The notes below the pieces were generated by a model that saw nothing but the letters and a program-made list of their open reading frames with translations, did no database searches and was not told the DNA's origin. Source: Escherichia coli (GTDB lineage Bacteria; Pseudomonadota; Gammaproteobacteria; Enterobacterales; Enterobacteriaceae). Taken from it: a stretch of DNA of 64,000 bases. Positions 2,844 through 64,000 of the stretch are shown here, piece by piece. How positions within the stretch are numbered: the stretch's first letter is position 1; each line of letters opens with the position of its first letter. The stretch is taken from assembly GCF_003790525.1 (NCBI RefSeq), contig NZ_CP033635.1. One strand, given 5' to 3'. A program made the translations under genes and the position numbers.

Positions 2844-4142
2844 ATGGCTGAAAGTACTGTAACGGCAGACAGCAAACTGACAAGTAGTGATACTCGTCGC
2901 CGCATTTGGGCGATTGTGGGGGCCTCTTCAGGTAATCTGGTCGAGTGGTTCGATTTCTATGTCTACTCGTTCTGTTCACTCTACTTTGCCCACATCTTCT
3001 TCCCTTCCGGGAACACGACGACTCAACTACTACAAACAGCAGGTGTTTTTGCTGCGGGATTTCTGATGCGCCCAATAGGCGGTTGGCTATTTGGCCGCAT
3101 AGCCGATAAACATGGTCGCAAAAAATCGATGCTATTATCGGTGTGTATGATGTGTTTCGGCTCACTGGTTATCGCCTGTTTGCCAGGCTACGAAACAATC
3201 GGTACCTGGGCTCCGGCATTATTGCTTCTTGCTCGTTTATTCCAGGGATTATCCGTTGGCGGAGAATATGGCACCAGCGCCACCTATATGAGTGAAGTTG
3301 CCGTTGAAGGGCGCAAAGGTTTTTACGCATCATTTCAGTATGTGACGTTGATCGGCGGGCAACTGCTAGCTCTACTGGTTGTCGTGGTTTTACAACACAC
3401 CATGGAAGACGCTGCACTCAGAGAGTGGGGATGGCGTATTCCTTTCGCGTTAGGAGCTGTGTTAGCTGTTGTGGCGTTGTGGTTACGTCGTCAGTTAGAT
3501 GAAACTTCACAACAAGAAACGCGCGCTTTAAAAGAAGCTGGATCTCTGAAAGGATTATGGCGCAATCGCCGTGCATTCATCATGGTTCTCGGTTTTACCG
3601 CTGCGGGCTCCCTTTGTTTCTATACCTTCACCACTTATATGCAGAAGTATCTGGTAAATACTGCGGGAATGCATGCCAACGTGGCGAGTGGCATTATGAC
3701 TGCCGCATTGTTTGTATTCATGCTTATTCAACCACTCATTGGCGCGCTGTCGGATAAGATTGGTCGCCGTACCTCAATGTTATGTTTCGGTTCGCTGGCA
3801 GCCATTTTTACCGTTCCTATTCTCTCAGCATTGCAGAACGTTTCCTCGCCTTATGCCGCTTTTGGTCTGGTGATGTGCGCCCTGCTGATAGTGAGTTTTT
3901 ATACTTCAATCAGTGGAATACTGAAGGCTGAGATGTTCCCGGCACAGGTTCGCGCATTAGGCGTTGGTCTGTCATATGCGGTCGCCAATGCTATATTTGG
4001 TGGGTCGGCGGAGTACGTAGCGTTGTCGCTGAAATCAATAGGAATGGAAACAGCCTTCTTCTGGTATGTGACCTTGATGGCCGTGGTGGCGTTTCTGGTT
4101 TCACTAACATTGCACCGTAAAGGAAAAGGGATGCGGCTTTAG
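2844..4142 (+). CDS. kgtP: alpha-ketoglutarate:H+ symporter (MFS)
   Basis: 432-aa [46 protein letters not shown]...; multi-pass membrane protein of the sugar-transporter MFS type; length and N-terminus match KgtP. Confidence 0.95.
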
Positions 4143-15648: not shown

Positions 15649-18002
<2,354 letters not shown>

Positions 18003-30510: not shown

Positions 30511-32612
<2,102 letters not shown>

Positions 32613-54484: not shown

Positions 54485-54492
54485 TTTATAAA

Positions 54493-54526
54493 ATGCCGGA
54501 TAAGGCGTTCACGCCGCATCCGGCAT
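54493..54526. repeat. REP element
   Basis: ATGCCGGATAAGGCGTTCACGCCGCATCCGGCAT palindrome between convergent yphB and yphA. Confidence 0.8.
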
Positions 54527-54531
54527 CTTTC

Positions 54532-57392: not shown

Positions 57393-59304
<1,912 letters not shown>

Positions 59305-59403
59305 CTATTTTTGTGCCATAAGGATGTTGCTGGTTGGTTGCTGATATGTGAAATAGTTAATTTCTACCAGCTGAGACGTTTTTTCGATAACAAGGGGAAG
59401 GTG

Positions 59404-60294
59404 ATGGAACTACGGCATTTACGCTATTTCGTCGCAGTGGCGCAGGCACTGAACTTTACCCGTGCGGCGGAAAAACTGCATACCTCACAGCCTTCGTTAA
59501 GCAGCCAGATCCGCGATCTTGAAAACTGTGTCGGTGTTCCGTTACTGGTGAGGGATAAGCGCAAAGTCGCGTTGACGGCGGCGGGAGAATGTTTTCTCCA
59601 GGACGCGCTGGCAATCCTCGAACAAGCGGAAAATGCCAAATTACGGGCGCGGAAAATTGTTCAGGAAGACAGACAATTAACCATTGGCTTTGTGCCATCG
59701 GCGGAAGTGAATTTACTGCCAAAAGTATTACCGATGTTTCGTCTCAGACAGCCAGACACCTTAATTGAGCTGGTGAGTTTAATCACCACGGAACAGGAAG
59801 AAAAAATTCGCCGTGGTGAACTCGACGTCGGCTTAATGCGCCATCCCGTTTATAGCCCGGAGATTGATTATCTGGAGCTTTTTGACGAACCATTAGTGGT
59901 GGTGTTACCGGTTGATCACCCTTTAGCACATGAAAAAGAGATCACTGCCGCGCAACTGGATGGCGTGAATTTCGTCAGTACTGATCCAGCGTATTCCGGT
60001 TCGCTTGCGCCGATCGTTAAAGCGTGGTTTGCGCAAGAAAACAGCCAGCCAAATATCGTCCAGGTGGCAACGAATATTCTGGTGACCATGAATCTGGTGG
60101 GGATGGGGCTGGGCGTCACTTTGATACCCGGTTATATGAATAATTTTAATACCGGCCAGGTGGTATTTCGACCCATTGCCGGAAATGTGCCTGCCATTGC
60201 TTTACTGATGGCGTGGAAGAAAGGGGAGATGAAGCCGGCATTACGCGATTTCATCGCCATTGTGCAGGAACGTTTGGCAAGCGTAACGGCATAA
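59404..60294 (+). CDS. hcaR: LysR-family activator of the hca operon
   Basis: 296 aa from MELRHLRYFVAVAQALNFTRAAEKLHTSQPSLSSQIRDLE...; divergent from hcaE; ORF-track ORF starts 31 codons upstream. Confidence 0.93.
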   Translation: MELRHLRYFVAVAQALNFTRAAEKLHTSQPSLSSQIRDLENCVGVPLLVRDKRKVALTAAGECFLQDALAILEQAENAKLRARKIVQEDRQLTIGFVPSAEVNLLPKVLPMFRLRQPDTLIELVSLITTEQEEKIRRGELDVGLMRHPVYSPEIDYLELFDEPLVVVLPVDHPLAHEKEITAAQLDGVNFVSTDPAYSGSLAPIVKAWFAQENSQPNIVQVATNILVTMNLVGMGLGVTLIPGYMNNFNTGQVVFRPIAGNVPAIALLMAWKKGEMKPALRDFIAIVQERLASVTA

Positions 60295-60453
60295 TTACGC
60301 ATTATTTTTGCAACATGCGTCGCGGATCGCAGTTTTTTAGTGCTTGTGAACTGGTGTTACAGACATCGGGAAGCAGGCTCGAATATTCTTATTTTTCAAC
60401 TTGCACCAACATTCGATTAACCCCAGACTAACGCCTCCTGACGGGAGGGACTC

Positions 60454-61593
60454 ATGGTTTTGCAATCCACGCGCTGGTTGGCGCTCGGCTATTTCACATA
60501 CTTTTTTAGTTACGGCATTTTTCTACCTTTCTGGAGCGTCTGGCTTAAAGGTATTGGTTTAACGCCAGAAACCATCGGCCTGTTATTGGGGGCGGGTCTG
60601 GTTGCCCGTTTCCTCGGGAGTTTGCTCATCGCGCCCCGCGTCAGCGATCCTTCCCGCCTGATTTCCGCCTTGCGCGTGCTGGCACTGCTGACACTTCTCT
60701 TTGCTGTCGCCTTCTGGGCGGGGGCGCACGTAGCGTGGCTGATGCTGGTGATGATTGGCTTTAACCTCTTTTTCTCACCGCTGGTACCGTTGACCGATGC
60801 ACTGGCGAATACGTGGCAAAAGCAGTTCCCGCTTGATTACGGCAAAGTGAGACTGTGGGGCTCGGTAGCGTTTGTCATTGGCTCGGCGCTGACGGGCAAA
60901 CTGGTCAGTATGTTTGATTATCGGGTGATCCTCGCGCTGTTGACGTTGGGCGTGGCATCCATGCTGCTCGGCTTTCTCATCCGTCCGACGATTCAGCCAC
61001 AAGGGGCAAGCCGCCAGCAGGAGAGCACCGGTTGGTCTGCGTGGTTGGCGTTGGTTCGCCAGAACTGGCGCTTTCTGGCCTGCGTTTGTTTATTGCAGGG
61101 GGCACATGCGGCCTATTACGGTTTTAGCGCCATTTACTGGCAGGCAGCTGGCTACTCGGCCTCGGCGGTGGGCTATTTGTGGTCGCTGGGCGTGGTGGCA
61201 GAAGTCATTATCTTTGCGCTGAGTAATAAGCTTTTCCGCCGTTGTAGCGCCCGTGATATGTTGCTGATCTCGGCAGTATGTGGGGTATTGCGTTGGGGAA
61301 TTATGGGGGCAACCACTGAGCTACTGTGGTTGATTATGGTGCAAATTTTGCATTGCGGCACCTTCACCGTGTGCCATCTGACCGCTATGCGCTACATTGC
61401 TGCTCGCCAGGGTAGCGAAGTCATCCGTTTACAGGCGGTTTACTCTGCCGTCGCGATGGGCGGCAGTATCGCCATCATGACCGTTTTCGCCGGTTTCCTG
61501 TATCAATATCTCGGCCACGGCGTGTTCTGGGTGATGGCGCTGGTGGCGCTTCCGGCAATGTTTTTGCGCCCGAAAGTTGTTCCCTCATGCTGA
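60454..61593 (+). CDS. hcaT: MFS transporter (putative 3-phenylpropionate transporter)
   Basis: 379-aa polytopic membrane ORF; 3' end overlaps the convergent csiE by 9 bp. Confidence 0.9.
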   Translation: MVLQSTRWLALGYFTYFFSYGIFLPFWSVWLKGIGLTPETIGLLLGAGLVARFLGSLLIAPRVSDPSRLISALRVLALLTLLFAVAFWAGAHVAWLMLVMIGFNLFFSPLVPLTDALANTWQKQFPLDYGKVRLWGSVAFVIGSALTGKLVSMFDYRVILALLTLGVASMLLGFLIRPTIQPQGASRQQESTGWSAWLALVRQNWRFLACVCLLQGAHAAYYGFSAIYWQAAGYSASAVGYLWSLGVVAEVIIFALSNKLFRRCSARDMLLISAVCGVLRWGIMGATTELLWLIMVQILHCGTFTVCHLTAMRYIAARQGSEVIRLQAVYSAVAMGGSIAIMTVFAGFLYQYLGHGVFWVMALVALPAMFLRPKVVPSC

Positions 61594-62865
61594 TTCGAGC
61601 ATTTTGCGGATCTGCTCCTGTTGATGTGTTGTCAACGTCAGGTCCGTATAGATCAGCGGTGGTGAAAAGAGCGGTAACGGCATGGTATAAGGAGCAATAA
61701 TCAGTGCCGCGCCGCGCGGAGCGCCTGTCTGCAAAAATGCCTTTACCGACATATGTTTAATGTTGAGCGGCAGTAACGTTAGTTCGCGTAGCTGCTGCTC
61801 AATCTGCGCTTCTCGCTCGCTATCATTCCCGGTCAGTAGAATAATCTGTTTCTCATGCAGGTCGTTTTCCTGCATTAGCCAGGCACCGAAAATCACCGCG
61901 ACCAGACCGCTTTCCTCATCAGAAAGATGGACGCCGTATTCACTTTCAAATCCGGCCAGCGCCGCGCGGGTGGTGCGCACCAGGCGTGGATACAGGCGGG
62001 CGAACTCTTCCGGCAGGGTGTTATCAATACCGATGGCAAACAAACTGCGATTTAACGCCTGGGCGAGGTGGGTATAAAGCTGATCGCACAACCCCTGTTC
62101 ATCATAAAAACGAACATTTCCCAGCTCACGAAAATGGTTTACCAGACGTTTGATAGACTGACGCAGTTGTCTGTCCCGCTGATGCGCATCCCGCAGTGGA
62201 TCGGGAACCCGCAACATGGAAAAAAGTAATGCCATGAACAGTGGCTCATCAGGCGGTACAGGCTGGAGCGCCCGACGCTGCCAGTGGCGTCCAATTTCCT
62301 GCGCTACCTGAAATTCAAGGCAGGATTCCGCCCAGCGACGTTGGAGCGGATTAAACTGAGGCGTAATTCCAGCGTGGTGTTGCAGCAAACAATATTGCAG
62401 ATACAGACACAGGAAATGAATATCGCGCGTTTCAAAGCGTTTTTGCAGCCGTCGGGAGCAGAGATTCACTAACGCTTGTAGATTGGTATCGTCGTAAAAG
62501 TTACGCGCAATTCCGCGCCGCTTCAGTTCACTCTTCAGGGCGGGGGTGAAATGGCTGGTAATAAATGACGGACACAGACGGAAACCACGTCGTAGCCAGT
62601 GAAATAAACACAAACGTTGGTTAAGCACTGTACCTTCAACCCGGTAGCTACCGTCATAACCAGTAGTCAGTGTGAGTTGATGATAGCGCAGGATCTCCCG
62701 TCCTGTTTCGCTGATATCAAGACTGGCAATATCATCATCCACACCATTAAGCTCGCTGAAAGTTGCCGTGGTGGCGGTCAACCCCGGCTGAAAGAGTGTC
62801 AGCAAGATCTGGCAGCGGCGCTGGGGAGCCGAAAGGACAGATGGTGGAGCAAGCGTAGGCATCAT
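61585..62865 (-). CDS. csiE: stationary-phase-inducible protein CsiE
   Basis: 426 aa from MMPTLAPPSVLSAPQRRCQILLTLFQPGL...; ORF-track ORF begins 7 codons upstream. Confidence 0.88.
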   Translation of the reverse strand: MMPTLAPPSVLSAPQRRCQILLTLFQPGLTATTATFSELNGVDDDIASLDISETGREILRYHQLTLTTGYDGSYRVEGTVLNQRLCLFHWLRRGFRLCPSFITSHFTPALKSELKRRGIARNFYDDTNLQALVNLCSRRLQKRFETRDIHFLCLYLQYCLLQHHAGITPQFNPLQRRWAESCLEFQVAQEIGRHWQRRALQPVPPDEPLFMALLFSMLRVPDPLRDAHQRDRQLRQSIKRLVNHFRELGNVRFYDEQGLCDQLYTHLAQALNRSLFAIGIDNTLPEEFARLYPRLVRTTRAALAGFESEYGVHLSDEESGLVAVIFGAWLMQENDLHEKQIILLTGNDSEREAQIEQQLRELTLLPLNIKHMSVKAFLQTGAPRGAALIIAPYTMPLPLFSPPLIYTDLTLTTHQQEQIRKMLESA

Positions 62866-63055
62866 CTGTAGATCTCCCATAAGCATAATTGATAAGAATA
62901 GCTAAAGTTTGCTCAGGGAAATGGCGAAGGGAATGCTAATCATCAGAAATGTTGGCAAGCGTCACAGAATTTTTCTCATCTTAAACTGTTCTGACCAGTG
63001 GATTAGCATGTCTTAAGGTGGTTTTGTGAATGATTATCGTGCTAGCGATCATGGG

Positions 63056-63910
63056 TTAGTTCTGCGGATTCAACGCGCTAAGGATAAAATCCACCATCTG
63101 TTCGCGATAAACATCGCCGTGACGATCAGAAAAAGCATCAATGTGTTCGCCATCCGGGATTAGGATCAACCGTTTTGGCTCTTTTGCCAGGCTATACAAC
63201 TTTTCGCTGTGCTGCCATGGGATAACGTGATCAGCTTTACCGTGAATGAGTAAAAGCGGGATCGGGCTGACGCTGGCGATGTAATTTTCGCCGCTGTAAC
63301 TCTCATCAAGTAAGTAGCCACTGCCGGGGATCATCTGGTTGGCGATGGTCGCATAAGAGGCAAATGTGGAGTCGAGGATCACCGCACGTATGCCTTCACG
63401 ATCACCCTGACCAATAACATCAAGAATATTCGCCCCGCCAATACTCTGCCCGAACAGCACCAGCCGTTGTGGGTTTACATCACTGCGATGGCGCGCCACA
63501 TTGATGGCACTTTGCGTATCGTCTAATAACCCTGCCTGAGAAGGTTTTCCTTTTGATTTACCAAACCCGCGATAATCAAACATAAAAACGTTGAAATTAC
63601 GCTCGGGTAACCAACTGACCAGCGGCCAGTGGGCGGACATATTTCCGGCATTGCCGTGAGCATGAATAATGGTAGCAATGGCGTTATCAGCAGGGCCCGT
63701 CGAAGAAGGAATAAACCAGCCTTGCAGACGAGTACCGTCCTTAGCCGTAAATTCGACGGATTCCGCCGACCAGGGGTCGGGACCGTATATTTTATCGTCA
63801 GGATAATAGAAGAAGTTGATGGCGACGCGCGGCACTAAATAAACGCAGAAGGCAACAACAAAGAGAATAAACAGAATTTTGAGAACGCGTTTGTTCACTG
63901 GCAGCGCCAT
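63056..63910 (-). CDS. yfhR: alpha/beta-hydrolase-fold serine hydrolase (uncharacterised)
   Basis: 284 aa from MALPVNKRVLKILFILFVVAF... (ATG at 63910 preceded by AAGGAAAGG); N-terminal TM anchor, nucleophile elbow GQSIGG; ORF-track ORF starts 9 codons upstream. Confidence 0.85.
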   Translation of the reverse strand: MALPVNKRVLKILFILFVVAFCVYLVPRVAINFFYYPDDKIYGPDPWSAESVEFTAKDGTRLQGWFIPSSTGPADNAIATIIHAHGNAGNMSAHWPLVSWLPERNFNVFMFDYRGFGKSKGKPSQAGLLDDTQSAINVARHRSDVNPQRLVLFGQSIGGANILDVIGQGDREGIRAVILDSTFASYATIANQMIPGSGYLLDESYSGENYIASVSPIPLLLIHGKADHVIPWQHSEKLYSLAKEPKRLILIPDGEHIDAFSDRHGDVYREQMVDFILSALNPQN

Positions 63911-64000
63911 AACCTTTCCTTGCGACTTCTTTATCATCCATTAATCGGGGAAAGATGGTGGGAGAGTGACGAAAGAAAGTAAAGCGGTGAGGAAGTATTT

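Follow-up and report, generated by a model that had tools for sequence, protein, structure and literature searches.

In the stretch of Escherichia coli DNA analysed here as a whole (64,000 nucleotides, hereafter the window), the genes hcaT and csiE converge and overlap tail to tail by 9 bp, and we consider it probable that this is an ordinary, ancient convergent junction which has lost its spacer, whose stop codons drift, whose read-through transcripts are ended by Rho and whose effect on regulation is negligible. The overlap itself is already known, as it stands in every E. coli K-12 annotation. What is new is that the junction is without any intrinsic terminator, that its spacer-less form dates back as far as the Enterobacteriaceae and does not depend on the hca cluster, and that it is marked by drift and not by sequence constraint.

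The hcaT gene (60454..61593, + strand) encodes a membrane transporter of the MFS class with 379 residues, annotated as a 3-phenylpropionate transporter (PF12832, TIGR00902, NF008346). The csiE gene (61585..62865, - strand) encodes a stationary-phase-inducible protein of 426 residues by the RefSeq start, with two PRD (PTS regulation) domains (PF00874 twice, NF008597); its open frame extends upstream to an alternative ATG at 62886 (ORF 61585..62886, - strand). The common segment, TCATGCTGA (61585..61593, both strands, 9 bp), holds the TGA stops of both genes. It is read TCA TGC TGA (Ser Cys stop) in hcaT and, on the opposite strand, TCA GCA TGA (Ser Ala stop) in csiE, so that hcaT and csiE codons stand in register across the overlap. 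The earlier note had described this convergence and 9-bp overlap at 61585-61593; its coordinates and gene names are right according to the sequence and to the RefSeq annotations of SMS-3-5 and MG1655. Indeed, the annotation of E. coli SMS-3-5, from which the window differs at 5 positions in 50 kb in this part, contains the identical 9-bp overlap, and the MG1655 coordinates (csiE 2665435..2666715, hcaT 2666707..2667846) also give 9 bp.

Apparent overlaps may arise when a miscalled stop or a sequencing error extends one coding sequence, and we give virtually no credence to such an annotation artefact here. Nothing was found in its support, and all that could be said for it is that the extreme C-termini do vary between genera. 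Profile matches run end to end in both proteins, covering residues 1-379 of HcaT (TIGR00902/NF008346) and residues 1-425 of CsiE (the NF008597 equivalog), and the stops are therefore not calling artefacts; they are, moreover, unambiguous. Both frames are genuine protein-coding genes, with full-length matches to curated profiles and orthologues in 78 species, over which the overlap classes recur. Of 5426 complete E. coli genomes, 5424 contain the junction; a 71-nt piece spanning it has at least 99% identity in 5004 of these and 95-99% in the other 420. The recurrence of the same sequence in more than 5000 genomes, together with the profiles and the 78 species, refutes the artefact.

For the comparison beyond E. 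coli, 18 CsiE orthologues were aligned, the alignment was used to fetch 80 Enterobacteriaceae loci (one per species), and the tblastn matches of CsiE and HcaT were extended to their stop codons at each locus. One locus, which ended 81 nt past csiE, was excluded, leaving 79 informative loci out of 80. In 78 of the 79 informative species hcaT converges on csiE; the exception is a Buttiauxella metagenome-assembled genome, where hcaT is replaced by an unrelated convergent ORF of 399 aa behind a 117-nt spacer. In 73 of the 78 loci the distance between the two stops ranges from a gap of 3 bp to an overlap of 9 bp; 65 of the 78 overlap by 4 bp or more. An overlap of 4 bp is the commonest form (35 of 78 loci), 6 bp occurs in 19, 9 bp in 8 and exact abutment (0 bp) in 9; a gap of 2 or 3 bp is seen in 2 loci, and the remaining five loci are single cases, three with overlaps (17, 22 and 77 bp) and two with spacers (38 and 89 bp). 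The 9-bp form occurs in Escherichia, in the Citrobacter amalonaticus group, in Pseudenterobacter and in Intestinirhabdus. Both the overlap class and the relative reading frame switch between genera, and the last residues are variable in HcaT (...VVPSC, ...VAARA, ...KAVA) as in CsiE (...LESA, ...LES, ...LEA), which argues for drift of the stop codons and not for a conserved overlap sequence. Such drift has been described as a mechanism of overlap formation (PMC2174442). We therefore propose that the intergenic spacer of an ancient convergent junction would have been lost long ago, and that the stops would since have drifted by a few bases in each lineage, the 9 bp of Escherichia having probably come about by happenstance.

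The far ends of this distribution can be described individually. In Kosakonia cowanii (locus L066, 4775-4837) the csiE stop codon is lost; CsiE is longer there by about 20 residues and its gene overlaps hcaT by 77 bp. Spacers separate the two genes only in two species, Dryocola (89 nt; L055, 4736-4824) and Cedecea sulfonylureivorans (38 nt; L058, 4736-4773). Both spacers contain REP-like palindromes, from which it follows that the overlap is not obligatory and that insertion of a mobile repeat can open the junction.

A spacer with a REP, as between yphA and yphB, is the more usual convergent layout, with which csiE/hcaT contrasts. The yphA/yphB spacer of the window (54485-54531) carries the REP palindrome GCCGGATGCGGCGTGAACGCCTTATCCGGC; it is 47 nt long in E. 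coli, and E. albertii and E. whittamii have a longer version of 158-159 nt (loci L002-L005). As a control pair, yphA/yphB offered four informative loci, too small a number to rank the stability of csiE-hcaT against that of other convergent pairs.

The gene upstream of csiE encodes a DUF1007 protein in 54 loci; in 14 its product has a SIS domain, and in Escherichia alone it is yfhR. On the far side of hcaT stand an aldose 1-epimerase gene (30 loci), a DoxX protein (YphA) gene (16 loci), a 419-aa ORF (8 loci), which we take, judging by eye, to be GlyA (serine hydroxymethyltransferase), or hcaR (4 loci, including the window). Since both flanks vary among loci, the csiE-hcaT junction is far more stable than either of them. 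Among the loci compared (L003-L082; segment 57907-61593 in the window), hcaR and hcaE are found beside hcaT only in E. coli-like Escherichia, in one Citrobacter and in Pseudocitrobacter, and in E. albertii and E. whittamii yphA follows hcaT directly. Judged from gene order, the link of hcaT with csiE is older than its link with the hca catabolic genes, and the hca cluster looks like an insertion beside an older transporter gene of uncertain substrate. The assignment of HcaT to phenylpropionate catabolism, these comparisons suggest, rests on an Escherichia-specific neighbourhood. As for the stability of the junction, a rearrangement that breaks the DNA between two overlapping genes cannot leave both intact, and either this mechanical cost or selection on the arrangement could explain it.

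One form that such selection could take is that CsiE, as an Mga/AtxA-like PRD regulator, and HcaT, as its cognate transporter or its target, cooperate and that the overlap is incidental. We regard this as rather unlikely, although the pair persists whether or not the hca cluster adjoins it, hcaR/hcaE standing beside hcaT only in E. coli and three further loci, and although the substrate of HcaT is uncertain, as strains deleted for hcaT retain growth on 3-phenylpropionate (PMC10249474). The predicted structure of CsiE also speaks for it. An AlphaFold2 model of CsiE (61588-62865, - strand), built from the 18-sequence alignment, has a mean pLDDT of 86.5. It begins with a winged helix (residues 13-77, approximately), continues with two PRD domains, both helical (80-333), and ends in an alpha/beta domain (340-424), which is EIIB-like in the model. 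With Foldseek, about 430 columns of the model were aligned with 5way, 4r6i and 3sqn at E-values of about 1e-7; the TM-scores were only 0.3-0.4, as is to be expected of multi-domain proteins whose arrangement is flexible. These matches, which extend over the full length, are the PRD-containing regulators MgaSpn, AtxA and an Enterococcus faecalis Mga-family protein; the sequence search of solved structures with CsiE reached only the PRD of LicT. CsiE thus probably has, according to its model, the architecture of an Mga/AtxA-like transcription regulator. Against cooperation with HcaT it must be said that a regulator gene seldom stands convergent to its target, that the structural match concerns architecture only and neither DNA binding nor a target, and that there is a neutral explanation for why overlapping genes stay next to each other.

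We return to the preferred reading of an ordinary junction and to the fate of its transcripts. A consensus scan found no intrinsic terminator downstream of either the hcaT or the csiE stop. A scan of the 1.1-1.3 kb past each stop for hairpins followed by a U-tract (threshold -6 kcal/mol or better) gave none in the 1.1 kb after the csiE stop and, after the hcaT stop, only a marginal site 270 nt on, so nothing usable. The single hit close to the junction, a hairpin inside hcaT (61539-61556, + strand), was considered as a terminator and rejected because it folds like shuffled sequence (z = +0.48) and because the hcaT mRNA would end before its own stop. The Rfam scan of 59000-64000, with E up to 1, returned no RNA family and one chance-level snoRNA match. 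Across 75-77 species, silent-site diversity over the last 20-120 codons of hcaT or csiE shows no drop compared with the remainder of the gene (for the last 40 codons the entropy is 0.684 in hcaT, whose gene mean is 0.634, and 0.659 in csiE, whose gene mean is 0.699, the csiE value lying at the 8.5th percentile), so that no embedded RNA element is conserved at these 3' ends. As there is neither intergenic DNA nor an intrinsic terminator, each transcript must carry sequence antisense to the other gene. The proposal of the earlier note that csiE transcription yields RNA antisense to hcaT, and vice versa, is thereby borne out, the more so as the overlap of the two transcripts has been catalogued (PMC12288877).

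The ordinary-junction reading thus supposes that, with no terminator between the genes or embedded nearby, each mRNA would continue in antisense through its partner gene, and that the antisense 3' ends would overlap whenever hcaT and csiE are both transcribed. Rho-dependent suppression of antisense transcription is established in E. coli. The most C-rich, G-poor stretch on the csiE transcript past its stop lies at 61265..61344 (- strand; C/G 2.64), 240-320 nt past the csiE stop and within antisense hcaT; on the hcaT transcript, a C-rich stretch at 61794..61953 (+ strand; C/G 1.4-1.9, with a maximum of 1.86) lies 200-360 nt past the hcaT stop and within antisense csiE. From this base composition, we infer that the two stretches are candidate Rho loading regions. 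Rho would act on the untranslated RNA and end the hcaT and csiE transcripts a few hundred nucleotides further on; composition and the general knowledge of Rho indicate that both transcripts probably run some hundreds of bases into the opposing gene before they are so ended. A literature search found nothing specific to csiE antisense transcription or to its Rho-dependent termination.

The csiE promoter (62899..62933, - strand) has a -35 element TTCCCT (62933-62928), an 18-nt spacer and a -10 element AACTTT (62909-62904); the transcription start mapped at MG1655 2665401 corresponds to window position 62899, and the promoter has been called weak and activator-dependent (PMC10301672). A sigma-S ChIP-seq peak coincides with it (PMC4447067). 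On the other side, a terminator-like hairpin with a T-run (60281..60310, + strand), detected by consensus scan at the hcaR stop codon, separates hcaR from hcaT and fits with hcaT having its own promoter in 60311-60453. Mutations increasing the activity of such a promoter of hcaT were selected in a genome-reduced strain (PMC10249474). This region also holds IroK (b4706), a 21-aa product of the MG1655 annotation, which in the window would take the last 66 nt of hcaR (60229-60294, + strand) and have the same stop codon; it is absent from the SMS-3-5 RefSeq annotation. The weakness of both promoters leads us to expect that polymerases would collide and RNA duplexes form only infrequently, probably too rarely to alter the levels of HcaT or CsiE much. 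The 9 common bases are too short to matter alone, and any effect would depend on the length of the read-through.

Published expression data bear on a functional excludon, in which sigma-S and cAMP-CRP would induce csiE and the antisense RNA through the hcaT 3' region would lower hcaT by head-on polymerase collision and by RNase III cleavage of the duplex, and conversely where hcaT is the more active gene. In Table 1 of the ExcludonFinder report (NAR 2025, PMC12288877), csiE-hcaT is among 165 convergent MG1655 pairs with overlapping transcripts, the overlap being seen for each pair in half or more of the 58 MG1655 RNA-seq samples surveyed. As a class, the pairs of that report have a more conserved gene order and fewer cells co-expressing both genes than non-overlapping pairs; in the text, csiE-hcaT is a catalogue entry, and the p19 double-stranded RNA data are not broken down by pair. 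The lack of an intrinsic terminator to block read-through and the spacer-less layout in 73 of 78 species despite varying flanks also agree with an excludon. However, hcaT was picked as one of the three most invariant transcripts of E. coli on the evidence of 240 arrays and of qPCR at 0, 4 and 8 h, at two temperatures and in two strains (PMC3110127), and it is widely used as a normaliser, including with strains of altered RpoS (sigma-S) (PMC11237923). Two lineages, moreover, tolerate REP insertions in the junction and one has lost hcaT, silent sites are without added constraint, overlapping genes resist rearrangement for mechanical reasons alone, and both promoters are weak (csiE activator-dependent; hcaT with an average array intensity of 8.29, PMC3110127). 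Weighing these points, we hold a functional excludon to be unlikely.

The strength of the invariance argument is limited by the assays. The standard hcaT qPCR amplicon corresponds to window 60963-61048, 537-622 nt from the junction (of the two published versions of the reverse primer, one mismatches it at a single position and the other matches it fully), and the hcaT reference assays use random-primed cDNA, summing both strands and not being strand-specific. With both strands summed and a distant amplicon, a local effect at the 3' end or a compensation by antisense RNA would be missed; the amplicon would also detect any csiE antisense read-through extending beyond 540 nt. A microarray study that names both csiE and hcaT (PMC2868799) is readable neither as a correlation nor as an anticorrelation. 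The suggestion that stationary-phase induction of csiE reduces hcaT expression is thus, in its strong form, mildly disfavoured, being weakly contradicted by the use of hcaT as an invariant reference.

In a broader form, csiE-hcaT would be a selected module as old as the Enterobacteriaceae, pairing an Mga/AtxA-like PRD regulator with an MFS transporter in a fixed tail-to-tail layout that has no terminator, and working either as a true stationary-phase switch by convergent transcription or through CsiE and HcaT acting in one pathway. We judge such a module to be quite improbable. Should its one-pathway form be true, the name "3-phenylpropionate transporter" would misstate the ancestral role of HcaT, which would predate the hca cluster.

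As a discovery the overlap matters little, since the transcript overlap is already catalogued. Its practical meaning is that a deletion or a tag made in one gene may harm its partner. In the Keio csiE deletion, a published curation found a primer error: the original primer lies inside hcaT, and the deletion removes the hcaT 3' end, with the last transmembrane helix (PMC9431181); phenotypes given to csiE in Keio screens may therefore come from hcaT. Where hcaT serves as a qPCR reference in stationary-phase work, strand-specific priming is safer, since random-primed cDNA captures csiE antisense RNA. In addition, the spacer-less csiE-hcaT junction, present in nearly all the species, offers a clean and weakly expressed test case for whether catalogued "excludons" act.

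Within the window, by RefSeq annotation, 4 of the 11 convergent gene pairs overlap: yfiM/kgtP (4139-4142, 4 bp, TTAG), nadB/trmN (16371-16386, 16 bp), mltF/tadA (31056-31059, 4 bp, TTAA) and csiE/hcaT (61585-61593, 9 bp). All four appear in the ExcludonFinder list. Counts of convergent overlaps in E. coli amount to 58 (Lillo and Krakauer 2007, PMC2174442) and 75 (Huvet and Stumpf 2014, PMC4161906), and the length met most often is 4 nt, the product of two stops that interlock. The hcaT/csiE overlap is thus ordinary and not unusual; what goes beyond chance is the persistence of the spacer-less junction across the Enterobacteriaceae.

Several known systems can be compared with this junction. Bidirectional intrinsic terminators answer the same problem, the ending of two converging transcription units, but unlike them the hcaT/csiE junction is without a GC-rich hairpin flanked by runs of A and T. 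It comes closer to Rho-suppressed antisense RNA: past their stops, the hcaT and csiE RNAs are likewise untranslated and antisense, with C-rich stretches 200-360 nt on, a likeness drawn from base composition only. With excludons csiE-hcaT has in common the opposite strands, the missing spacer and transcripts listed as overlapping in Table 1 of PMC12288877. The hallmark of an excludon is, however, that expression of one gene excludes that of the other, with RNase III processing, whereas hcaT behaves as an invariant transcript. From the convergent overlapping pairs that arise by stop-codon drift (PMC2174442; PMC4161906) there is no essential difference: the overlap is short and only stop-proximal codons are common to both genes, 4 nt is the commonest length among the relatives of hcaT/csiE as in prokaryotic convergent pairs, and one lineage represents the loss of a stop with read-through. 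The codon-aligned 9-bp class of Escherichia is rarer than the 4-bp class and is one of several forms that the junction takes among its relatives.
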